Sequence record: KT184314.1
Length of the DNA stretch: 64,000 nt
Origin: Enterobacteria phage KhF2
Reading direction: 5' to 3' (one strand)
Made by a program: the position numbers and the translations under genes. This document shows positions 705 through 61,475 of this stretch, piece by piece; within the stretch, counting starts at the first letter, position 1, and the number at the start of each line of letters is the position of its first letter. The notes under the pieces were generated by a model. It saw only the letters and a program-made list of their open reading frames with translations, was not told the origin of the DNA and did no database searches.

Positions 705-780
705 TGGTAGTCCAGTGGGATTTGAACCCTCTTCTCATGTTTTTCAGACACGCGCTTTAACCATATAAGCTACTTGGACT
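705..780 (-). tRNA. tRNA-Phe (anticodon GAA)
   Basis: Hand-folded cloverleaf; T-loop TTCAAAT; anticodon loop CTGAAAA; CCA encoded. Confidence 0.6.
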
Positions 781-786
781 ATAAAT

Positions 787-862
787 TGGGGTGACCTACG
801 GGATTTGAACCCGTATAGACCATGTTCACAGCATGGGTCATTACCATTTATGATAAGGCCAC
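787..862 (-). tRNA. tRNA-His (anticodon GTG)
   Basis: Anticodon stem CCATG/CATGG with loop CTGTGAA; T-arm CGGG-TTCAAAT-CCCG; CCA encoded. Confidence 0.6.
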
Positions 863-893
863 ATTTAAGGACTCTCGTAAGAATCCTTAGAAG

Positions 894-969
894 TGGCAGC
901 GGCATAAGGATTTGAACCTTAATAGGACAGCTTCAGAGACTGTTGCATTGCCAGTTATGCTATACCGCT
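894..969 (-). tRNA. tRNA-Gln (anticodon CTG)
   Basis: Acceptor AGCGGTA/TGCCGCT, D-stem GCAT/ATGC, anticodon loop CTCTGAA, G73, CCA encoded. Confidence 0.6.
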
Positions 970-974
970 AAATT

Positions 975-1054
975 TGGTACTCCATATCGGATTCGAACCG
1001 ATACATAACACAGATTTTAAGTCTGGCCTCTCTGCCAATTGGAGTAATGGAGCA
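975..1054 (-). tRNA. tRNA-like, anticodon probably TAA (Leu by anticodon), atypical short variable loop
   Basis: T-arm ATCGG-TTCGAAT-CCGAT and CCA present; anticodon loop CTTAAAA on a 4 bp stem; D-arm weak. Confidence 0.35.
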
Positions 1055-1055
1055 T

Positions 1056-1131
1056 TGGCGGGGGATGTTGGAATTGAACCAACTTCTTCGATTTCAAAGA
1101 CCGAGGTTTTAACCTTGTAAACTAATCCCCT
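1056..1131 (-). tRNA. tRNA-Gln (anticodon TTG)
   Basis: Acceptor AGGGGAT/ATCCCCC with G73; D-stem GTTT/AAAC; anticodon stem TCGGT/ATCGA with loop CTTTGAA. Confidence 0.55.
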
Positions 1132-1139
1132 TTAAATCT

Positions 1140-1697
1140 TTACTTTCTCAGTGGATGAATAAAGAATGCCAACATAACTCTTTCCCTTGAGAATGCTCTT
1201 TCTTCTGGGACAACACTTTTTAGTTTCCATCCAATATAAATTCTCCAGTAAAACTGTTTACCAAAGACTTTAATTGATGGGATAAAGGCGAATAATCCCC
1301 AAGCATTACTGTTCCACATTAGGAGATAACCAGTCTGATTATCTTCAGGGTCAGAACTTACGTTGATATTACCTTTCCACTTAGTAACATCTTTTACATC
1401 TCTTCCTAATACATGGTAAGAGAAGTTATAAGCTTTGTTTCTCCAGAGCCATCCGACTCTTTGCATGTAGACGCCTAGTTTACCAATCCATCTAATATTA
1501 GCCCATCTTTTAACGTGACCTTCATCACCATCAATTGGGTTGTCATATGTCTCCATCCATCTGAACCCGAAAGGTAAGCGTCCTTTCTTCTCACTGTAGA
1601 ATGGAACTACAAAAGGTGCTAAGATAACTGCTAAGATTGCTGCAAATGGCTCTAACAAAGCTAAGAAAATCCATGAAACATATTTTAAGTATCTCAT
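1140..1697 (-). CDS. hypothetical membrane protein (185 aa) embedded in tRNA array
   Basis: ORF track; hydrophobic N-terminus; start overlaps stop of upstream ORF (ATGA). Confidence 0.45.
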   Translation of the reverse strand: MRYLKYVSWIFLALLEPFAAILAVILAPFVVPFYSEKKGRLPFGFRWMETYDNPIDGDEGHVKRWANIRWIGKLGVYMQRVGWLWRNKAYNFSYHVLGRDVKDVTKWKGNINVSSDPEDNQTGYLLMWNSNAWGLFAFIPSIKVFGKQFYWRIYIGWKLKSVVPEERAFSRERVMLAFFIHPLRK

Positions 1698-1936
1698 TGT
1701 CTAACCCTCGTAAGGAGGTAAGCATTATTATTTGTTTCTGAGCTTTCTGGTAACATTGTCTCAAAATTGACGCTTTTAAGTTGTCTTCCACCAAAGCAAT
1801 GACCAATAAATCTTTCTACTTTTATTGGGTCGCATTCCCATCCGACTTTCAAGAAAATGTGGGTATCTATAGTGGGAACCCTTACAAACTCAATACTATT
1901 GGGATTTTCATGTTCAACGACGATTAATGTTTGCAT
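1694..1936 (-). CDS. hypothetical protein (80 aa)
   Basis: ORF track; translationally coupled to 1140..1697. Confidence 0.4.
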   Translation of the reverse strand: MQTLIVVEHENPNSIEFVRVPTIDTHIFLKVGWECDPIKVERFIGHCFGGRQLKSVNFETMLPESSETNNNAYLLTRVRQ

Positions 1937-1954
1937 AAATTCCTCTTGCTTATC

Positions 1955-2030
1955 TGGCGCAGGATAAGGGATTCGAACCCCTATTAACAGCTTCGTAGAC
2001 TGTTGCTCTATCCATTTGAACTAATCCTGC
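1955..2030 (-). tRNA. tRNA-Arg (anticodon ACG)
   Basis: Acceptor GCAGGAT/ATCCTGC, anticodon stem ACAGT/GCTGT with loop CTACGAA, T-loop TTCGAAT, CCA encoded. Confidence 0.6.
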
Positions 2031-2035
2031 AAAAT

Positions 2036-2113
2036 TGGTGTTCCAAGACGGATTCGAACCGTCACTAGTACAAGGTTTGAGCTTGCATCCTCTGCCAATT
2101 GGGATACTGGAAC
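2036..2113 (-). tRNA. tRNA with anticodon CAA (Leu by anticodon) but class-I-like short variable loop
   Basis: Acceptor GTTCCAG/TTGGAAC with A73; anticodon stem GCAAG/CTTGT with loop CTCAAAC; only a 6 nt variable region. Confidence 0.45.
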
Positions 2114-2114
2114 A

Positions 2115-2193
2115 TGGTACTCACTAAAGGACTTGAACCTTTTTCTTCATCTTGTAAGGGTGATGTTTTACCATATAAACTAAGCGAGTATGA
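2115..2193 (-). tRNA. tRNA-Val (anticodon TAC)
   Basis: Acceptor ACTCGCT/AGTGAGT, D-stem GTTT/AAAC, anticodon loop CTTACAA, A73, CCA encoded. Confidence 0.55.
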
Positions 2194-2195
2194 AA

Positions 2196-2283
2196 GAGGT
2201 CTGGAGTTGTGCCGCTAACTCAACTCCGTGGAATTTGTTACGGTCTTCAGTTGACTCAAAGCGGTCTTTCACTTGACCTCTGA
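2196..2283. ncRNA. structured RNA candidate / non-canonical tRNA-like element
   Basis: Closing stem GAGGTC...GACCTC plus internal hairpins (GGAGTTG...CAACTCC; CCGT...ACGG); no canonical T-loop found. Confidence 0.25.
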
Positions 2284-2285
2284 AT

Positions 2286-2362
2286 TGGTGCTGCTCACAG
2301 GACTCGAACCTGCATTTCCATCCTTACAAGGGATGTGTAATAGCCAATTATACGAAAGCAGC
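2286..2362 (-). tRNA. tRNA-Thr (anticodon TGT)
   Basis: Anticodon stem CATCC/GGATG with loop CTTGTAA; T-loop TTCGAGT; CCA encoded. Confidence 0.6.
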
Positions 2363-2368
2363 ATTGTT

Positions 2369-2443
2369 TGGAGCATCCAGAGGGAATCGAACCCTCAACC
2401 TCAGTTTGGAAGACTGTAATTTTCCCGTTTAAACTATGGATGC
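2369..2443 (-). tRNA. tRNA-Gly (anticodon TCC)
   Basis: Acceptor GCATCCA/TGGATGC; anticodon loop CTTCCAA; T-arm GAGGG-TTCGATT-CCCTC. Confidence 0.6.
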
Positions 2444-2449
2444 ACTAAT

Positions 2450-2526
2450 TGGTGGAGAAGCAGGGAATTGAACCCTGTACTTAAGTTTGCAAAACTTATG
2501 TTTTAACCATGTAAACTACATCCCCA
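2450..2526 (-). tRNA. tRNA-Ala (anticodon TGC)
   Basis: G3:U70 wobble pair in acceptor stem (Ala identity element); anticodon stem TAAGT/ACTTA with loop TTTGCAA. Confidence 0.6.
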
Positions 2527-2531
2527 ATGTC

Positions 2532-2607
2532 TGGTACAGGTGGAGGGAATTGAACCCATCGTCTTACTGATTAAGAGTCAGCCGCATAACCATTTTGCTA
2601 CACCTGC
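2532..2607 (-). tRNA. tRNA-Lys (anticodon CTT)
   Basis: Acceptor GCAGGTG/CACCTGT; anticodon stem GCTGA/TCAGT with loop CTCTTAA; T-stem only 3 clean pairs. Confidence 0.5.
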
Positions 2608-2614
2608 ATTAATT

Positions 2615-2692
2615 TGGTAGGAGACAAGGGATTCGAACCCTCAAACACCAACTTCTAAGGATGGTAGGTTTACCAATTACCATCAATCTCCC
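2615..2692 (-). tRNA. tRNA with anticodon TAG (Leu by anticodon), short variable loop
   Basis: T-arm GAGGG-TTCGAAT-CCCTT; anticodon stem CCATC/GTTGG (one mismatch) with loop CTTAGAA; A73. Confidence 0.4.
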
Positions 2693-2948
2693 ATTAAATC
2701 TTTTTAGAGAACTTCTAAGAACCTGAGCAACAAGGTTCCACAACAAGCGACTAATAACCTTAGAAGCCCTCTAAAAAGACCTAAATAGGTCTTTGCATAG
2801 TCTTGTTTAATCCGGTGACTAGAACCTTTGGAGAGCTTGATATTATCTCTTCTCCGTGACACCTACTAGGTGCTTTGACAGTGTACGACAATACACGAGG
2901 GATAAACCGACAATGCGAACAAGCATGGACGGAGTAAATCTTATTAGG

Positions 2949-3036
2949 CGGTAAGTAAAGGAGTCGAACCCTCACCGTATCTCTACAGTGGCAACTGTTT
3001 TCAAGACAGTTTGGCTACCATTAGCCGCTACCTACC
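2949..3036 (-). tRNA. tRNA-Ser (anticodon TGA), class II with long variable arm
   Basis: 88 nt; acceptor GGTAGGT/ACTTACC, G73; anticodon stem ACTGT/ACAGT with loop CTTGAAA; long extra arm; CCA not encoded. Confidence 0.55.
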
Positions 3037-3049
3037 CCTAATAAGACTT

Positions 3050-3132
3050 TGGCATGGGACGGAGGAGTTGAACCCCTTTGAAACGGTTTTGGAGGCCGTT
3101 GCTCATGCCTTAGAGTCTTAACATCGTCCCAT
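3050..3132 (-). tRNA. tRNA-like, possible Trp (anticodon CCA), atypical 5' region
   Basis: Good T-arm and acceptor ATGGGAC/GTCCCAT with G73; anticodon-like stem-loop ACGGC-CTCCAAA-ACCGT; about 7 extra nt between acceptor and D-arm. Confidence 0.3.
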
Positions 3133-3274
3133 ATTATAATTCGAAGCTTACCCTGTTATCTCAACACTGTCAAGCTTCTTCTCAGATTATTTACATGTTC
3201 TGGAAAACATGAGATACAGACCACCTCCCTACAGGAAGACCCGCTAAGGCCGTCTAAGTAATCTGCTAACTATT

Positions 3275-3356
3275 TGGTCGAGGCGGCAGGACTCGAACCC
3301 GCATACTCCACTTACTCGGTTAACGGCGGTTTAGAAGACCGCTGAGATACGCCCCG
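3275..3356 (-). tRNA. tRNA-like, possible Arg (anticodon TCT), atypical architecture
   Basis: Acceptor CGGGGCG/CGCCTCG, T-arm GCGGG-TTCGAGT-CCTGC, perfect stem-loop GCGGT-CTTCTAA-ACCGC; D-arm not identifiable, 23 nt between anticodon arm and T-arm. Confidence 0.3.
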
Positions 3357-3604
3357 TAATTATCTTTAAAGACTCTCTTAGAAAGCCCTTAAAGATGCCC
3401 ACCTTATTAATCATACCGTGGGCGAGTACGCCAAATTCTTTAATGAGGGATTGGAAGACCTCACTGGTGTTTAGCCTATCAAGCTACTGCCAGAAAAACA
3501 TTGTCGTTTGCATTTATTTTAAATTTGCAAAATAGACGCTACGCAACGAAAACTAAGGTTACTATAAAGCAGTCACATCTCAATGTCAACAACTTTATTG
3601 AAAT

Positions 3605-3680
3605 TGGTACTGGTAGGTGGAATCGAACCACCGATGTTCCCTTATCAGGGGAGTGTTATAACCTTCTTAACTATACCAGC
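3605..3680 (-). tRNA. tRNA-Ile (anticodon GAT)
   Basis: Acceptor GCTGGTA/TACCAGT; T-arm GGTGG-TTCGATT-CCACC; anticodon loop CTGATAA. Confidence 0.55.
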
Positions 3681-3681
3681 T

Positions 3682-3758
3682 TGGAGGTTCAGATGGGAAT
3701 CGAACCCACATTCATAGGGCTTATGAGACCCTTGCATTACCTTATCTGCGACTGAACC
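3682..3758 (-). tRNA. tRNA-Met (anticodon CAT; elongator, initiator or Ile2 not distinguished)
   Basis: Acceptor GGTTCAG/CTGAACC; anticodon stem AGGGT/GCCCT with loop CTCATAA. Confidence 0.55.
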
Positions 3759-3762
3759 ATAT

Positions 3763-3838
3763 TGGTAGAAGTGGAGGGATTCGAACCCATCGCCTGTCAG
3801 ATTAAAAGTCTGCCGCATCACCATTCTGCTACACTTCC
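3763..3838 (-). tRNA. tRNA-Lys (anticodon TTT)
   Basis: Acceptor GGAAGTG/CACTTCT; anticodon stem CAGA/TCTG with loop CTTTTAA. Confidence 0.5.
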
Positions 3839-4035
3839 ATTAAATTATCTTTGTAGATAAGCTACCCAGACTTGCTTAAGGTCTGTAGCGATGTGCCTTG
3901 TTGGGTTTAAATCTAGAATTTACCCTTTCACCCTTTGTGGTCGCATACTCACAGGTAAGCTTAATAACTTATCTACAAAGATAATTACCAGACCGTTGTT
4001 TATCATCTTAAGTGCTACCATTACACCAACTCGAC

Positions 4036-4063
4036 ATCTGCCGAGTGAAGGAATCGAACCTTC
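4036..4063 (-). pseudogene. tRNA 3' fragment (T-arm plus acceptor 3' strand without a matching 5' half)
   Basis: GAAGG-TTCGATT-CCTTC T-arm followed by ACTCGGC-A; no complementary 5' acceptor strand within 100 nt. Confidence 0.25.
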
Positions 4064-4270
4064 GCCTTTTCTTTACCGGAGAAATAGATTGTTTAAGTTT
4101 TGCTGTAAACGGTCTTCTGTAAATTTGTTGAGCCAGACCAAGTTTTAAATTTTTTCAAAATTAAATTGGCTTGAAATTTTCATACGTTCTTGATGTATTT
4201 GGTCTTCTGCTCCTTTAAAGAATACTCGTAAGAACTCTTTAAGGGAGGGGCTAAATAGCCCTCTCAAAAT

Positions 4271-4347
4271 TGGCGGCTACGATGAGACTTGAACTCACAT
4301 CATCTCCCGTGACAGGGGAGTATTTTCTCCAGTTAAACTACATAGCC
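4271..4347 (-). tRNA. tRNA-Asp (anticodon GTC)
   Basis: Acceptor GGCTATG/CGTAGCC with G73; anticodon stem CTCCC/GGGAG with loop CTGTCAC. Confidence 0.6.
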
Positions 4348-4352
4348 TTTAT

Positions 4353-4440
4353 TGGTGTGCCGTGTAGGAGTCGAACCTACCGAGTCTCAATGACAAGGGA
4401 TTTACAGTCCCCACCGCTACCATCTACGGGATAACGACAC
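4353..4440 (-). tRNA. tRNA-Tyr (anticodon GTA), class II
   Basis: 88 nt; anticodon loop CTGTAAA; long variable arm; T-arm GTAGG-TTCGACT-CCTAC. Confidence 0.6.
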
Positions 4441-4448
4441 ATTTAATT

Positions 4449-4525
4449 TGGCGGTTAGTCAGGGATTCGAACCCTGTGCCATTCGCTTAACAGGCGACCG
4501 CACATACCTTATGTGCTTCCTAACC
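4449..4525 (-). tRNA. tRNA-Asn (anticodon GTT)
   Basis: D-arm GCAC-ATAAGGTAT-GTGC; anticodon loop CTGTTAA; G73. Confidence 0.55.
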
Positions 4526-4602
4526 TTAATACATTGCCAGACCGTGTTTTTTCTTTTATCCGCAAAAAGTATTTTGTTGCTGAATACGGTCTTCTGCAAA
4601 AT

Positions 4603-4679
4603 TGGAGGCGGGTGCAGGAGTCGAACCTGCCGATACCATGCTAATGAGACATGTGAGACGCCCTTTCTCTATACCCGCA
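4603..4679 (-). tRNA. tRNA, anticodon probably CAT (second Met/Ile2-type), fold imperfect
   Basis: T-arm GCAGG-TTCGACT-CCTGC; candidate anticodon stem CATGT/GCATG with loop CTCATTA (unusual T37). Confidence 0.4.
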
Positions 4680-4768
4680 ATTCTTAATGACCAGACCAAA
4701 TATCTTCTTTGTCCGATTAACTTTCAGATGAGTAGATTAAGTTTGCTGTAATTGGTCTTCTGTCAAAA

Positions 4769-4847
4769 CTGGCGTTCCAGAAGGGATTTGAACCCTCAGA
4801 TATCCACTTTGAAAGAGTGGTGACTTTACCATTTTGTCTACTGGAAC
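4769..4847 (-). tRNA. tRNA-Glu (anticodon TTC)
   Basis: Acceptor GTTCCAG/CTGGAAC with G73; anticodon stem CCACT/AGTGG with loop CTTTCAA. Confidence 0.55.
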
Positions 4848-4854
4848 ATTAATT

Positions 4855-4930
4855 TGGTCTCTGTTGGAGGACTTGAACCTCCGGCCTTACCGCCCCAAAC
4901 GGAACGCTCTACCAAGCTGAGCTAAACAGA
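4855..4930 (-). tRNA. tRNA-Pro (anticodon TGG)
   Basis: Canonical D-arm AGCTCAGCTTGGTAGAGC; anticodon loop TTTGGGG; T-arm GGAGG-TTCAAGT-CCTCC. Confidence 0.6.
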
Positions 4931-5096
4931 GATAAACTTTTCAAACTCTATGTAACAACTTTAACATTATTTTTTAGTGGTTGTCAAGAACTTTTTTAAA
5001 ATATTTTTCAGTATCTTAGAAAAGCTCTCATTTCGTTTCTATGTAGAACATATTAAAGGGTATTAAACACATTGTCAATACCCTTTTTAAAACTTT

Positions 5097-6512
5097 TTAC
5101 CAGATGTAACGGTCAATCATTACTGCTTTGAGCATTACGCTGATTGGGTCAAACTTCTCACCACCAAGCAGAGCTTTTAAAGTGGCTGGAGAGAAACCAG
5201 ATACCATTGCTACACCGTTATCCTTAACAGACACTTCGCAAGTACCACTACGGTTTGCTAAGTACCAGAATACCAGTTGTGGCATTTCGTATCCAGCTTT
5301 TTTGTACTTACTACGAATTGCTTCAAAGTTTGTACGACCATTTGCACCGTCAACCTGATTGAACTCCATATCAGAGAAGATGATAAGCTTACTTGGCATA
5401 TCTTTCTGAGTCAAGTTGTTTCTCTTACCTGTCTCAAGGATGCGGTCAAAAGCTGCTTGTAAGTTAGTTGAACCGTATTCAACATGTCGCATTACTTGAC
5501 GGTGACGGTTCTTTAAATCGCCACTCAGTTCGATGAAATGAGGGTTTGTTGAATAAACCATTAACTCGTTCTTAAAGCAACCTGTATTGCGTTCTGCTAC
5601 ATACAAGGCAAGTGATACACCAATATCAAGGGCAGTAATTGAGCCAAAATTCACCCAAGACATTGAACTTGAAACATCAGACATACATAGAATGTTTTCA
5701 CCCTCTGCCATCCAGTTTGGTAGTGCTTTCCACTGCTCATTAGCAACATCTGCATTACCATACTTAACAGATTTAATCACATCGTATGGGTAAACAGCAC
5801 CAGCATTAATCTTAGCCTCACCCTTTGATAATGACTCGATGTAAGCTTTGTAGCGTTCTCCATCTTTACGGTTAAACAGTTTTTGGTAACGTGCAGCAGC
5901 AAGTGAAGGAATCTTACTGTAGTCAATCTTACCAAACTCATTAGCAGAGATTTTTTGCTCAACTGTATCAGATAGTGCAGACAACAGTGTGCGGTACTCT
6001 TTCTCACTTAAGTTTGCAAACTTGCAGAAACGTTTTACAAACTGCTTATGACGTGGTTTGACTCGTGGTAACCACTTAGCTGCCAAACCTGCTGTTGCAG
6101 GGTCTAGTAATGCTGCTTCTAAATGTTTGAAGGCATCTGTCTCGAAACGAGTACCTACGAAGATTTTGAAGTCATCAAAACGACCAAGTTCTGCAATCTT
6201 ATCCATAATACGAAGAACCTGTGTAGGCTCTAAAACTTTGTCTTCGATTGCTTGAAGTAAAACAGTTCGGAAAGCTTTACGCTCACCCATACCTTCTCGT
6301 ACATCTCGCATATGCAGTAAAATACGAACTGCAACATCAACACCCTCACGCAAAGCTTTGTAGAACAGGTCTGGTAAGATTTCTACATTGCTACGGCTTG
6401 AACCAGCAGCTTTGTAAAAGTCTACCAGAGCAGACATTGATGAAGTATGGTTTACAGCACCATTTTCAGTTCGACCTGCATGAAGGTGCGCATGTTTAAA
6501 TAATTCGCTCAT
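5097..6512 (-). CDS. vWA-like domain protein (putative MIDAS motif D-x-S-x-S)
   Basis: 471 aa ORF; motif LCMSDVSSSM resembles a von Willebrand A metal-ion site; no other recognisable motif. Confidence 0.4.
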   Translation of the reverse strand: MSELFKHAHLHAGRTENGAVNHTSSMSALVDFYKAAGSSRSNVEILPDLFYKALREGVDVAVRILLHMRDVREGMGERKAFRTVLLQAIEDKVLEPTQVLRIMDKIAELGRFDDFKIFVGTRFETDAFKHLEAALLDPATAGLAAKWLPRVKPRHKQFVKRFCKFANLSEKEYRTLLSALSDTVEQKISANEFGKIDYSKIPSLAAARYQKLFNRKDGERYKAYIESLSKGEAKINAGAVYPYDVIKSVKYGNADVANEQWKALPNWMAEGENILCMSDVSSSMSWVNFGSITALDIGVSLALYVAERNTGCFKNELMVYSTNPHFIELSGDLKNRHRQVMRHVEYGSTNLQAAFDRILETGKRNNLTQKDMPSKLIIFSDMEFNQVDGANGRTNFEAIRSKYKKAGYEMPQLVFWYLANRSGTCEVSVKDNGVAMVSGFSPATLKALLGGEKFDPISVMLKAVMIDRYIW

Positions 6513-61115: not shown

Positions 61116-61475
61116 ATGAAACGTGAAAACATTATCCACTCTGAAAACTTTGCATTAGGCTTTTATGGTGTACCTACTCACCTTGAAAAGTATTATGGTG
61201 TGAAGATTCTCTCCAATCTCATTATGGCTTACAAAGATGGTAAGATTAAGCATACTGAGAAGAAACGTGTCATGGGCTATATGGCTGTAGGTTCAGCAAT
61301 CTCAAACATTAAGCTGGAAACAACTAGCAGCCAGATTGTAAAAGACCACTTCATCAAAGAGCTTTACCACAACCTTGATGGTGTAGATGTTCAGGCTGTT
61401 TGGCTGGATGTTGATGGTCATAACTACACAAGTTTTGTTTTCAAAAATGATGACATTAAGTGCTTGTTCCCATAA
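61116..61475 (+). CDS. hypothetical protein
   Basis: ORF track. Confidence 0.45.
   Translation: MKRENIIHSENFALGFYGVPTHLEKYYGVKILSNLIMAYKDGKIKHTEKKRVMGYMAVGSAISNIKLETTSSQIVKDHFIKELYHNLDGVDVQAVWLDVDGHNYTSFVFKNDDIKCLFP

Follow-up and report, generated by a model that had tools for sequence, protein, structure and literature searches.

The window, a stretch of 64,000 nucleotides from Enterobacteria phage KhF2 (KT184314.1), comes from a Felix O1-like phage of the genus Felixounavirus, and its (-) strand carries 23 ARAGORN-predicted tRNAs between positions 705 and 4931 together with several RNAs of irregular design and, directly upstream on the same strand, a gene for a putative Ro60-like protein (Table 1). 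A large tRNA array had been recognized here in a first-pass annotation made from the sequence alone, and the elements it described lie where it placed them; it overlooked the second of the two Met(CAU) tRNAs and, of the stem-flanked RNAs, the three shorter ones. The array itself is already known, as the same tRNAs are annotated in RefSeq and GenBank relatives. Over its full length of 4.5 kb it is 95.9% identical to phage KhF1, and 278 phage records, chiefly Felixounavirus, match it. The relatives encode a set of 26 tRNAs that covers 19 amino acids and lacks Trp alone; it includes Ser(GCU) and Cys tRNAs to the left of tRNA-Phe, past the left end of the window.

Table 1 Features of the KhF2 small-RNA locus, all on the (-) strand, in leftward order.
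Feature	Positions	Basis
Ro60-like protein gene, 471 aa, Pfam DUF2828 + DUF7788	5097..6512	Pfam, AlphaFold, Foldseek, Bas63 synteny
Two sigma-70-like promoter matches, upstream of tRNA-Pro	4958..5078	consensus matches only
tRNA-Pro(UGG), first gene of the array	4855..4931	ARAGORN; Rfam 57.7 bits
tRNA-Glu(UUC)	4770..4847	ARAGORN, Rfam
E1, short Y-RNA-like	4688..4765	covariance model 32.2 bits, E 6.8e-6, best in window
tRNA-Met(CAU), initiator-like acceptor stem, U1.C72, U37, U73	4603..4679	ARAGORN
E2, short Y-RNA-like	4534..4599	covariance model 26.6 bits, E 2.2e-4, second in window
tRNA-Asn(GUU)	4449..4525	ARAGORN, Rfam
tRNA-Tyr(GUA), class II, long arm, 88 nt	4353..4440	ARAGORN
tRNA-Asp(GUC)	4271..4347	ARAGORN, Rfam
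E3, short Y-RNA-like	4130..4212	covariance model 18.7 bits, E 0.027
E4, YrlA-like RNA, longest of the four	3985..4122	fold; pair counts
tRNA-Lys(UUU)	3763..3838	ARAGORN, Rfam
tRNA-Met(CAU), U73; Ile2 or elongator Met possible	3682..3758	ARAGORN, Rfam
tRNA-Ile(GAU)	3605..3680	ARAGORN, Rfam
Promoter-like site TTGACA-17-TATAGT, 11/12, within array	3561..3589	consensus match
D-arm-less tRNA(UCU)-like RNA	3275..3356	Rfam alignment; family alignment; pair counts
Promoter-like site, immediately upstream of Trp-like RNA	3136..3164	consensus match
Non-canonical tRNA-Trp-like RNA	3050..3132	covariation; fold
tRNA-Ser(UGA), class II, 90 nt	2947..3036	ARAGORN
tRNA-Leu(UAG), 5-nt variable loop, A73	2615..2692	ARAGORN cloverleaf
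tRNA-Lys(CUU)	2532..2607	ARAGORN, Rfam
tRNA-Ala(UGC), G3.U70	2450..2525	ARAGORN, Rfam
tRNA-Gly(UCC)	2369..2443	ARAGORN, Rfam
tRNA-Thr(UGU)	2286..2362	ARAGORN, Rfam
tRNA-Val(UAC)	2115..2189	ARAGORN, Rfam
tRNA-Leu(CAA), 6-nt variable loop, A73	2036..2113	ARAGORN cloverleaf
tRNA-Arg(ACG)	1955..2030	ARAGORN, Rfam
Two small protein genes (80 aa, no family; 185 aa, DUF7338)	1140..1936	
tRNA-Gln(UUG)	1056..1131	ARAGORN, Rfam
tRNA-Leu(UAA), 7-nt variable loop, A73	975..1053	ARAGORN cloverleaf
tRNA-Gln(CUG)	894..969	ARAGORN, Rfam
tRNA-His(GUG), encoded G-1, C73	787..862	ARAGORN
tRNA-Phe(GAA), last tRNA of the window	705..780	ARAGORN

Standard and short-arm tRNAs

Models of the Rfam tRNA clan match 22 of the 23 ARAGORN tRNAs, 20 of which reach at least the tRNA gathering score. 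The Ser and Tyr tRNAs, whose long arms had been recognized earlier and are drawn by ARAGORN as well, are matched by the related tRNA-Sec model alone, with scores short of its threshold, and the Met(CAU) tRNA at 4603-4679 has no tRNA-clan match among the matches listed. As judged from their sequences, 20 of the 23 tRNAs are ordinary, with discriminator bases and key identity marks that fit the synthetases of E. coli and Salmonella (G3.U70 in Ala, G-1/C73 in His, U73 in Gly, and G73 in the Gln, Asp, Asn, Glu and Ser tRNAs). They would serve codons that are commoner in the AT-rich phage than in its host, and they could also substitute for host tRNAs cleaved by defence nucleases, as has been shown in other phages. 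In the ORFs of the window TTA, TTG and CTA account for 24%, 15% and 10% of the Leu codons and AGA for 25% of the Arg codons; the related phage Sf14 over-uses TTA, CTA and AGA relative to its host (PMC12482277).

The atypical elements are all kept in about 30 related genomes with compensatory base changes, and thus they are not chance patterns. Three of them are tRNAs with Leu anticodons, which ARAGORN draws as cloverleaves of 78-79 nt with the short, class-I-like variable loops proposed in the first-pass annotation, and not as class II folds with a long arm. They are conserved with compensatory changes, Leu(UAG) occurring as two such alleles, and all three are present in each of the roughly 30 related loci as well as in the distant Pectobacterium phage Arno162; other phage contigs also hold Leu tRNAs of 77-78 nt. 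They match E. coli leuZ in each segment and differ from it by the absence of the 15-nt arm. Retained are A73, U8:A14, A15:U48 and a D arm with a 3-bp stem whose 11-nt loop contains G18G19. Since these comprise every element known to be used by E. coli LeuRS, the host enzyme most likely leucylates all three isoacceptors.

The Trp-like and UCU RNAs

The Trp-like RNA has an 8-bp acceptor helix, a D stem of 3-4 bp, a 4-bp T stem and an anticodon loop CUCCAAA (anticodon CCA) with a C31.A39 mismatch, and it carries A1-U72, G73 and a 3' CCA. The element, with the extra nucleotides noticed earlier before its D arm, is real and under selection: an 8-nt connector, AUGUUAAG, joins the acceptor to the D stem where 2 nt are usual, and it is invariant among relatives. 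In the alignment 94.8% of the cells are paired and both sides have changed in 7 of 21 pairs, a result approached by none of 500 shuffles and by no slid control. ARAGORN makes no call, the Rfam score of 23 bits is under every threshold, and among the 25 phage records listed no tRNA is annotated over this element. We consider it most likely to be the tRNA-Trp of the phage in an irregular fold, in which case it would fill the sole amino-acid gap of the set.

The UCU RNA was also missed by ARAGORN, and scores 31.7 bits with the Rfam tRNA model (threshold 29). It consists of an acceptor CGGGGCG/CGCCUCG, a linker UAUCUCA, an anticodon arm GCGGU-CUUCUAA-ACCGC, a 23-nt segment CGUUAACCGAGUAAGUGGAGUAU, a T arm and ACCA. 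Its D arm, which had not been recognizable by hand folding, is indeed deleted in the Rfam alignment (4 nt in place of 15), with 20 nt inserted in the variable region, and the RNA is under selection, the family alignment being 99.3% paired with compensatory changes in 12 of 17 pairs. Homologs of 83-90% identity occur in T5-like, jumbo, Vequintavirinae, phi92-like and Vibrio phages, and because near-identical copies are found in such unrelated phages we regard it as a horizontally spread family as far as the sequences tell, often adjoining an HNH endonuclease gene; in Roth39, FO1a, JN01 and tootiki this gene borders the element or has been annotated across it. Among 32 related genomes 19 have the canonical tRNA-Arg(UCU) alone and 13 the D-arm-less form alone, with none having both or neither. 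This either/or occupancy of the slot suggests that the two forms are interchangeable, and most likely the UCU RNA fills the tRNA-Arg(UCU) slot and does that tRNA's job.

RNAs E1 to E4 and the Ro60-like protein

Four further RNAs, E1 to E4, combine paired ends with a CAGCAA-type motif. In E1 an outer stem UGAC/GUCA, an AGA/G internal loop and an inner stem AGACCAA/UUGGUCU are followed by UUACAGCAA; E2 has UUGC/GCAA, AGACCGU/ACGGUCU and AUUCAGCAA, and E3 has GAGC/GCUC, AGACCAA/UUGGUCU and AUACAUCAA, the motif being CAGCAA in most relatives of E3. The ends of E4 are formed by UUAC/GUAA and AGACCGU/ACGGUCU, with UUACAGCAA and a V hairpin. Inside E4 lies a tRNA-like domain with a T arm GAAGG-UUCGAUU-CCUUC, an acceptor-like hairpin ACUCGGC-AGAU-GUCGAGU (100% paired, three compensatory pairs) and a D arm GUGU-AAUGGUA-GCAC. 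Its T-arm/acceptor part at about 4046-4096, a partial Rfam tRNA match of 22 bits, does exist as described in the first-pass annotation, but the claim that it lacks a 5' half does not hold, as the acceptor 5' strand and the D arm sit directly downstream. We therefore rejected the fragment as a feature of its own: within the terminal stem the order is V, T arm, loop-closed acceptor-like hairpin and D arm, an architecture known from bacterial Y RNAs of the YrlA type (PMC4201824). Judged by this order, E4 is a YrlA-like RNA with a permuted tRNA-like domain.

The string AGACCNNWTWCAKCAA occurs four times in the array against 0.25 expected per window, and the scores of E1-E3 in Table 1 come from a covariance model trained solely on elements of distant phages and run on the 64-kb window. 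The terminal stems of E1-E4 do not vary within Felixounavirus, so it is paralogs and distant phages that support them. A stem + CAGCAA element lies on the same strand and no more than 800 nt away in 52 of the 75 distant DUF2828 loci; the opposite strand gives 10 loci and permuted hexamers about 8. The count has meaning only through the permutation, strand and covariance-model controls, as the scan demanded complementarity by design.

The AlphaFold model of the protein encoded next door (pLDDT 89.4) has Ro60/TROVE proteins as all of its best nine Foldseek matches, over the full length, with TM 0.52-0.64 and E 6e-8, and the product is thus predicted to be Ro60-like. By synteny the gene is the ortholog of Bas63 gp130, which a published study describes as resembling Ro60 and as counteracting the "ppl" defence system; its authors guessed that some "tRNAs" could be Y RNAs (PMC11482910). 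The linkage points to E1-E4 as probable partners of the Ro60-like protein: enzymes processing the flanking tRNAs would free them from shared precursors, they would bind the protein, E4 would present its tRNA-like domain as bacterial YrlA does, and the particle may act in RNA surveillance or anti-defence.

Interpretation and alternatives

Taken as a whole, we read the locus, with a probability of roughly 0.7, as a Felixounavirus small-RNA module of standard tRNAs, host-charged short-arm Leu tRNAs, a tRNA-Trp, a UCU tRNA substitute and the Ro60 partners E1-E4, transcribed leftward from several putative promoters and beginning right after the Ro60-like gene. What was observed is the structures with their conservation and covariation, the linkage of the genes and the mutual exclusion of the alleles, and from these we infer expression, processing, aminoacylation, protein binding and role. 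It could be argued that the short-arm Leu tRNAs, the Trp-like RNA, the UCU RNA and the T-arm "fragment" are pseudogenes in decay or arise only because short AT-rich sequence was folded, and that the standard tRNAs alone matter. The missing ARAGORN calls and low Rfam scores of the Trp-like and UCU elements would fit this, as would an annotated tRNA pseudogene in the phage T5 array and folding-energy z-scores that are unremarkable and not significant. All four are, however, kept across genera with compensatory substitutions and nearly no broken pairs, in the UCU RNA neither the unpaired linker nor the 23-nt segment varies among unrelated phages, and exactly one UCU form is kept per genome; the covariation largely refutes decay or artefact, which is hardly credible. 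Minimalist and arm-deleted E. coli tRNA-Leu variants reportedly stay substrates (Larkin et al. 2002; Asahara et al. 1993), which speaks against a different charging of the Leu-anticodon tRNAs, with another amino acid or none, if host LeuRS required a class II body. Such a requirement would agree with the report that E. coli LeuRS, described as type II only, did not charge Streptomyces type I tRNA-Leu (PMC6614811), but the Leu-type D arm, A15:U48 and A73 are retained, the Leu isotype model of tRNAscan-SE scores highest for all three Sf14 orthologs (PMC12482277), and hundreds of genomes maintain all three isoacceptors, making this very unlikely.

A possible though rather unlikely alternative is that the UCU and Trp-like RNAs are tRNA mimics, for instance decoys for tRNA-cleaving defence nucleases or tRNA-binding factors of the host, or that the UCU RNA is selfish cargo of the HNH endonuclease displacing the canonical gene. 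E. coli ArgRS depends on A20 of the D loop, which the UCU RNA does not have in its usual place, and some family members encode no CCA and have flanks that close and prolong the acceptor helix to 12-13 bp, an uncommon length for a tRNA. The HNH neighbours and the horizontal spread also suit cargo, and in published tests the enzymes of E. coli were unable to charge irregular 8/4 tRNAs that bear an additional loop (PMC7609411). Against mimicry stand the strict either/or use of the slot, an anticodon loop that is invariant in the family but for a single anticodon change, to CCU, which is also Arg, a D-loop-like AANUGGA within the 23-nt segment, and in the Trp-like RNA the E. coli TrpRS marks CCA, G73 and A1-U72 at the only amino-acid gap. 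For E1-E4, passive spacers, RNase-processing or terminator hairpins, or cis-regulatory sites on the DUF2828 mRNA, none of them bound by Ro, would be in keeping with a location between tRNAs, where processing signals are expected, with a position directly upstream of the DUF2828 gene in many distant phages, as for an autoregulatory leader, and with the absence from all four of GNCGAA, the motif thought to bind bacterial Ro60 (PMC4201824). Yet among homologs of 29-48% identity the stem + CAGCAA signature follows the protein gene on either side and often in several copies, it is missing where phages lack that gene, both from the T5 tRNA region and from the 12-kb locus of Arno162, in which there is no DUF2828 gene, and many copies bear the complete domain of T arm, hairpin and D arm, superfluous in a spacer; we therefore hold such roles to be unlikely and favour E1-E4 as probable Ro60 partners. 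In Bas63 the tRNA genes are mostly non-essential on laboratory hosts (PMC11482910).

tRNA complement of the array

ARAGORN places 23 tRNAs between 705 and 4931, all on the minus strand, and Rfam tRNA-clan models match 22 of these, 20 of them at or above the tRNA gathering score. The Ser and Tyr tRNAs match the tRNA-Sec model only, below its threshold, and Met(CAU) at 4603-4679 has no listed Rfam tRNA-clan match. Extra Rfam matches were obtained at 3278-3356 (above the tRNA threshold) and, weakly, at 3056-3130 and 4046-4096. An encoded CCA is present in all tRNAs but Ser. The Ala tRNA carries G3.U70, the His tRNA G-1/C73 and the Gly tRNA U73, while G73 is found in the tRNAs for Gln, Asp, Asn, Glu and Ser, and A73 in those for Leu, Phe, Val, Thr, Lys, Ile, Tyr and Pro. 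On sequence, these discriminator bases and hallmark pairs fit the known E. coli identity rules (in part PMC9976931).

The surroundings of the array are 95.9% identical to Enterobacteria phage KhF1 across 4.5 kb, and 278 phage records match, most of them from Escherichia, Salmonella and Shigella phages of the genus Felixounavirus; Escherichia virus TH10 shows 99.4% identity across a 791-nt stretch. Since RefSeq and GenBank relatives have the same tRNA genes annotated in the same order, with Ser(GCU) and Cys added downstream, past the left edge of the window, the tRNA array as such is already known, and it is the annotated Felixounavirus array. It resembles the clusters of large virulent coliphages (Felix O1, T4, T5) in packing about 20-26 tRNAs with encoded CCA densely onto one strand, interspersed with small ORFs and stable non-tRNA RNAs. 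The T5 record (NC_005859, 30284-33949) lists seven “stable” or “tRNA-like” RNAs of unknown function in its tRNA region. Two protein genes lie mid-array within 1140-1936 (-), one for a 185-aa DUF7338 protein (1140-1697) and the other an 80-aa ORF.

The G+C content of the window is 38.6%, and in its long ORFs TTA, TTG and CTA make up 24%, 15% and 10% of the Leu codons, and AGA 25% of the Arg codons. In the related Shigella phage Sf14, TTA, CTA and AGA are significantly over-used compared with the host (PMC12482277).

Two Met(CAU) tRNAs are present in the array, one of which had been named in the first-pass annotation. In the Met(CAU) tRNA at 4603-4679 (-), U1 and C72 are mismatched in an initiator-like acceptor stem (UGCGGGU), position 37 holds U in place of a purine, the discriminator is U73, and the anticodon stem lacks three consecutive G-C pairs. 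This tRNA may represent a variant initiator that resists nucleases of the VapC type.

Leu, Arg and Trp members with unusual bodies

The non-canonical members of the array are real and selected, and they are poorly described or undescribed. Genome pipelines and papers list such arrays as ordinary tRNAs, whereas about one quarter of the RNA genes are non-ordinary here, and two array RNAs have either no RNA-gene annotation in the relatives examined or spurious ORFs on top of them. The first-pass annotation, made from the sequence alone, had proposed a large tRNA array holding Leu tRNAs with atypically short variable loops, a Trp-like element with extra nucleotides before the D arm, and a TCT-anticodon element without a D arm, and all four points are borne out by the tRNA calls, alignments and compensatory pairs reported here.

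The three Leu tRNAs fold as cloverleaves of 79, 78 and 78 nt in ARAGORN, with variable loops of 7, 6 and 5 nt versus the 15-nt arm of leuZ from E. coli MG1655, with which they were compared segment by segment. The 3-bp D stem is identical in the phage tRNAs and leuZ, the 11-nt D loop reads CAAUUGGCAGA versus GAAUCGGUAGA, and A14, A15, G18G19, A73 and the U (U48) ending the variable loop are common to both. Thus the anticodon, A73, Leu-type D arm and U48 of a bacterial class II tRNA-Leu are all found, and the long variable arm (>10 nt, with a stem) is absent from all three. Judged by their sequences they would work like tRNA-Leu, but with variable loops of only 5-7 nt they are not class II.

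These Leu tRNAs were found in 100% of about 30 Felixounavirus and Mooglevirus loci, and the distant Pectobacterium phage Arno162 has Leu(UAG) and Leu(UAA) too. Leu tRNAs of 77-78 nt that share their D arm are found in further phage contigs and in Proteus phage Mydo as well, whereas T5 (85 nt) and phi92 (86 nt) carry ordinary class II tRNA-Leu. Leu(UAG) comes in two alleles, between which the acceptor and anticodon stems show many differences, all of them pairwise, and for all three Sf14 orthologs the top tRNAscan-SE isotype model is Leu (PMC12482277). In the Leu(UAG) allele of the window (2615-2692, -) the D stem is weak and the anticodon stem contains a U.U mismatch, and the other allele (locus L001, 3515-3591) is more regular. 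Across 81 mixed phage loci, five of nine Leu tRNAs combine a short variable loop with the Leu-type D arm.

From the studies of Asahara (1993) and Larkin (2002), E. coli LeuRS reportedly does without the variable arm of tRNA-Leu. Short variable loops on tRNAs with a Leu anticodon are otherwise described from animal mitochondria and Streptomyces coelicolor, as type I tRNA-Leu (PMC6614811), a parallel that includes co-existence with class II tRNA-Leu in one compartment. Unlike these, the phage genes act in enterobacteria and have a D arm of the E. coli Leu type, and the host LeuRS that they would meet is the one reported to reject the Streptomyces type I tRNA, which is not charged by the E. coli enzyme (PMC6614811). 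If E. coli LeuRS does charge the phage tRNAs, they are a natural minimal substrate and the “class II only” statement needs revising.

The UCU element, a tRNA(UCU)-like RNA lacking a D arm, scores 31.7 bits with the Rfam tRNA model (threshold 29), in an alignment that shrinks the D arm to 4 nt and places a 20-nt insert in the variable region. It has the UCU anticodon, A/G73 and acceptor, anticodon and T arms, and instead of a D arm carrying A20 it has a 7-nt linker, UAUCUCA. Homologs with 83-90% identity occur in a T5-like Klebsiella phage, the jumbo phages SE_PL, SP27 and Ecwhy_1, Proteus phage Mydo, phi92-like phages, an rV5-like phage and a Vibrio phage, and a pattern scan of viral contigs returned 36 elements, 23 of them distinct. 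In an alignment of 16 of the 23 distinct elements, 99.3% of cells are paired and 12 of 17 pairs are compensatory. Within the family the linker is invariant and a 23-nt segment, YUUAAYCGAGUAANUGGAGUAU, nearly so; 13 of 16 sequences have CUUCUAA as their anticodon loop, and the sole anticodon variant, CCU, is also an Arg anticodon. Among 32 loci from Felixounavirus, Mooglevirus and Arno162, 19 have only a canonical tRNA-Arg(UCU) of 75-77 nt and 13 only the D-arm-less form, none having both and none having neither. An HNH endonuclease gene adjoins the element in Roth39, and one is annotated over it in FO1a, JN01 and tootiki. This leads us to infer a mobile cassette by which the canonical gene is exchanged for a functional, differently built substitute.

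The UCU element probably does the work of tRNA-Arg(UCU), but two points speak against a plain tRNA role. A20 is a determinant for ArgRS and is not in its usual place, and some members of the family (L130, L133, L141 and L142) lack the CCA, their leader and trailer lengthening the acceptor helix to a closed 12-13 bp. The substitute proposed for the cassette resembles the D-arm-less mitochondrial tRNAs such as mt-tRNA-Ser(AGY), having no D arm between the acceptor and anticodon stems, but at 82 nt it is not miniaturised, it belongs to a bacterial and phage context, and its near-invariant 23-nt segment, with a D-loop-like AANUGGA inside, follows the anticodon arm. A passage in a 2024 paper describes the known bacterial tRNAs as all being cloverleaves (PMC11551756).

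ARAGORN makes no tRNA call at the Trp-like RNA, and its best Rfam score is 23 bits, with the tRNA-Sec model. Aligning ten distinct sequences, Arno162 included, gave a cloverleaf with 94.8% of cells paired and both sides changed in 7 of 21 pairs; none of 500 shuffles reached the observed values, and slid registers gave zero compensatory pairs. The anticodon loop is CUCCAAA (7 nt, CCA anticodon), closed by a constant C31.A39 mismatch, the discriminator is G73 and the first pair A1-U72. A CCA anticodon, G73 and A1-U72 are the marks recognised by E. coli TrpRS. An invariant 8-nt connector, AUGUUAAG, leads from the acceptor helix to the D stem, in place of the 2-nt connector of a canonical 7/5 cloverleaf. 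An eighth acceptor pair, G8-C72, with a 4-bp T stem is possible in 10 of 10 sequences and never varies, and position 56.72 is A.C in all ten. The variable loop is 5-6 nt and a Ser/Sec-like long arm is absent. The RNA is present in 235 phage records, all of Ounavirinae type, and none of the 25 records listed has an annotated tRNA over it; the tRNAs of relatives cover 19 amino acids, Trp alone missing.

The closest described RNAs are the irregular 8/4 allo-tRNA-like RNAs (Mukai et al. 2017, reviewed in PMC7609411). The Trp-like RNA may likewise form 8 + 4 bp rather than 7 + 5, has 6-8 extra nt between the acceptor and D stems, and is polycistronic with other tRNAs. It differs in its short variable loop without a Ser/Sec-like long arm, and in coming from a phage rather than soil bacteria, with a Trp anticodon and TrpRS identity marks. 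Allo-tRNA-like RNAs of the 8/4 type with an extra loop were not charged by E. coli enzymes (PMC7609411).

Stem and CAGCAA RNAs beside a Ro60-like gene

Four small RNAs within the array, E1-E4, share one frame (see table). An outer stem of 4 bp differs in sequence from copy to copy, with pairing kept in all four, and is followed by an AGA/G internal loop and a 7-bp stem AGACCNN/NNGGUCU. Directly after the 5' strand of the stem stands (U)UACAGCAA or a near variant, and the 16-nt core has four copies in the array versus 0.25 expected in the whole window.

Coordinates of the small RNAs, atypical tRNA-like RNAs and Ro60-like gene
Feature	Coordinates	Strand	Description
E1	4765-4688	-	shared frame
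E2	4599-4534	-	shared frame
E3	4212-4130	-	shared frame
E4	4122-3985	-	shared frame + tRNA-like domain
UCU element	3275-3356	-	D-arm-less tRNA(UCU)-like RNA
Trp-like RNA	3050-3132	-	tRNA-like, CCA anticodon
Ro60-like gene	5097-6512	-	471 aa, DUF2828 + DUF7788

Inside this frame E4 holds, in order, a V hairpin, a T arm GAAGG-UUCGAUU-CCUUC, a loop-closed hairpin of 7 bp and a D arm GUGU-AAUGGUA-GCAC. Its middle, acceptor-like hairpin occurs in three versions that differ in three pairs and are 100% paired, and the minimum-energy fold gives the same four hairpins within the terminal stem. The order V, T, acceptor-like stem, D is that of the YrlA RNAs found beside bacterial Ro60 genes (PMC4201824). 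The element that the first-pass annotation had read as a T-arm/acceptor fragment, the one of its five points that did not hold, is part of the tRNA-like domain of a YrlA-like RNA. A circularly permuted tRNA gene of the algal or archaeal kind at 4046-4096 was also considered and rejected, as there is no anticodon arm, the ends form the conserved terminal stem common to three shorter RNAs, and a Ro60-like gene lies upstream. Two further helices of E4 were dismissed, CUUAA/UUAAG being a closing helix of the minimum-energy fold that is not conserved, and the alternative AUCU/AGAU showing no covariation.

The comparison with YrlA holds in several respects. Like YrlA Y RNAs and the Yrl RNAs of Thermus phage phiLo (PMC4201824, PMC12135203), E1-E4 lie on the same strand as, and within a few kb of, a gene for a Ro60-fold protein (330-1,130 nt downstream, within the roughly 4 kb typical of YrlA), and their 5' and 3' ends pair as a stem. 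The YrlA combination of terminal stem and V-T-acceptor-like-D domain is found in E4, while E1-E3 have stem and motif only, and such shorter paralogs alongside E4 may be compared with YrlB. Unlike in YrlA, the genes are embedded in a tRNA operon, and the single-stranded motif is a conserved CAGCAA, the YrlA motif GNCGAA(N)G (GNCGAA/CGAA) being absent near the 5' ends of E1-E4. Against Rfam, with E up to 10, E1-E4 gave only the tRNA clan and weak chance matches.

The 471-aa product of the Ro60-like gene has Pfam matches to DUF2828 and DUF7788 only and none to TROVE, and neither phmmer nor a profile search found Ro60 in the PDB by sequence, which sets this DUF2828/DUF7788 branch apart from known Ro60/Rsr. 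An AlphaFold model from a 54-sequence alignment reached pLDDT 89.4 (single-sequence run, 43.8), and its nine best Foldseek PDB matches are all Ro60 (probability 1.00, TM 0.52-0.64), from Xenopus (including a structure with RNA), human, Deinococcus (Rsr) and Thermus phage phiLo. The model thus predicts the Ro60 fold of a HEAT-repeat ring and a vWA domain, in which the MIDAS residues DxSxS...T...D (D279, S281, S283, T349 and D381) are invariant in 54 homologs. In Bas63 the orthologous gene is gp130, which a preprint describes as Ro60-like and as countering the “ppl” defence system, with the speculation that some of the neighbouring “tRNAs” are Y RNAs (PMC11482910). A literature search on DUF2828 returned only unrelated plant and animal papers.

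The protein has more than 2,800 homologs, chiefly in phage contigs, and the RNAs accompany it over large distances. One homolog gene of 40% identity is directly followed by AAGACCC-CCACAGCAAC, then a V hairpin and a T arm, and finally GGGUCUU; in AT-rich phages, three tandem stem + UUACAGCAA elements stand ahead of the genes for homologs of 29% identity. A further 75 contigs (39-48% identity) were scored for elements having a stem of at least 7 bp with CAGCAA at most 4 nt after it, at most 800 nt from the gene and on its strand; 52 contigs have at least one, compared with 10 loci on the opposite strand and a mean of 7.9 for 40 permuted hexamers (maximum 14, the overlapping ACAGCA excepted). 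Many distant elements hold a T arm, a hairpin and a D arm. A covariance model of 20 short elements from distant contigs alone ranked E1 first in the window (32.2 bits, E 6.8e-6), E2 second (26.6 bits, E 2.2e-4) and E3 fourth. Stem + CAGCAA elements are absent from the T5 array, its seven “stable” or “tRNA-like” RNAs included, and the 12-kb Arno162 locus has neither these elements nor a DUF2828 gene. At gathering thresholds, Rfam matched only tRNA and tmRNA in 15 distant loci.

Bas63 carries all four elements, one of them under a hypothetical CDS on the opposite strand (bas63_0137, L037 4249-4401). Short ORFs at 3891-4148 and 4012-4122 (+) similarly overlap E4 and are annotated as hypothetical proteins in relatives; such opposite-strand ORFs are probably spurious. 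A covariance-model match at 61278-61337 (+; 19.2 bits, E 0.021) lies inside a 119-aa ORF and is probably due to chance. The Thr-Val spacer (2190-2285, -) has a stem AGAGGUC/GACCUCU with an inner 7-bp hairpin and contains GAAGACCGUAACAAA, possibly a decayed copy of the 5' motif of E1-E4. Copies of GGTCTTC at 3235, 3334 and 3454 (-), considered as terminal-motif copies, are instead anticodon-loop-like CUUCU/CUUCC hairpins.

Proposed working and further spacer structures

Given the observed structures, conservation, covariation, gene linkage and either/or Arg(UCU) forms, the array most likely works as follows. It would be transcribed from promoter-like sites at 5078-5050, 4987-4958, 3589-3561 and 3164-3136 (-), which are consensus matches only, and the transcript would be cut by host tRNA-processing enzymes; the same cuts would also release E1 and E2, which stop 8-10 nt short of the following tRNA. 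Host enzymes would charge the array tRNAs, the short-arm Leu set included and probably also the Trp-like and D-arm-less RNAs, for service in the AT-rich codon usage of the phage, and the tRNAs may also buffer it against tRNA-cleaving defences. E1-E4 would bind the Ro60-like protein through stem and CAGCAA, with E4 presenting a tRNA-like handle, as proposed for YrlA.

A joint reading, to which we give a probability of roughly 30%, is that the array hides two RNA classes that we did not find described. One would be non-cloverleaf tRNAs that are truly aminoacylated and take part in translation on E. coli or Salmonella ribosomes, comprising the family of D-arm-less tRNA-Arg(UCU) and the 8/4 tRNA-Trp with its extra connector; the other would be stem + CAGCAA Y-like RNAs partnering DUF2828 Ro60-like proteins, in an RNP with a tRNA-like handle for anti-defence (countering “ppl”) or tRNA surveillance. 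If so, bacterial translation would have in the former its first natural departures from the cloverleaf rule, and their decoding would bear on how far ribosome, EF-Tu and synthetases tolerate non-cloverleaf bodies, with direct relevance to orthogonal tRNA engineering. The stem + CAGCAA RNAs are a concrete candidate partner for a phage protein family that is very large and functionally uncharacterised, although an anti-defence phenotype is already on record for one of its members, and a true pairing would supply RNA partners for the DUF2828 proteins of thousands of phage sequences.

Rfam matches to tmRNA and permuted tmRNA at 3358-3663 are weak, stay under the threshold and overlap tRNA-Ile. The Lys(UUU)-proximal spacer at 3847-3982 (-) has a stem of about 20 bp, AUCUUUGUAGAUAAG.../...CUUAUCUACAAAGAU, enclosing about 100 nt with internal hairpins that include CAGAC-CUUAAGCAA-GUCUG; it varies little across the 22 loci in which it is conserved, and may represent either an RNase III site or a further stable RNA. 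A hairpin at 3444-3463 (-), UGAGG-UCUUCCAAUC-CCUCA, presents CUUCCAA in the manner of an anticodon loop, and three of its pairs show compensatory changes among relatives; the structured spacer of 250 nt that holds it lies downstream of a strong match to a promoter. A repeated hairpin type, CUUUAAAG/UAAGGA...UCCUUA, stands between tRNA blocks at 863-893, 3360-3390, 4212-4240 and 2700-2775 (-); with compensatory changes in some copies, these hairpins may be processing or termination signals.
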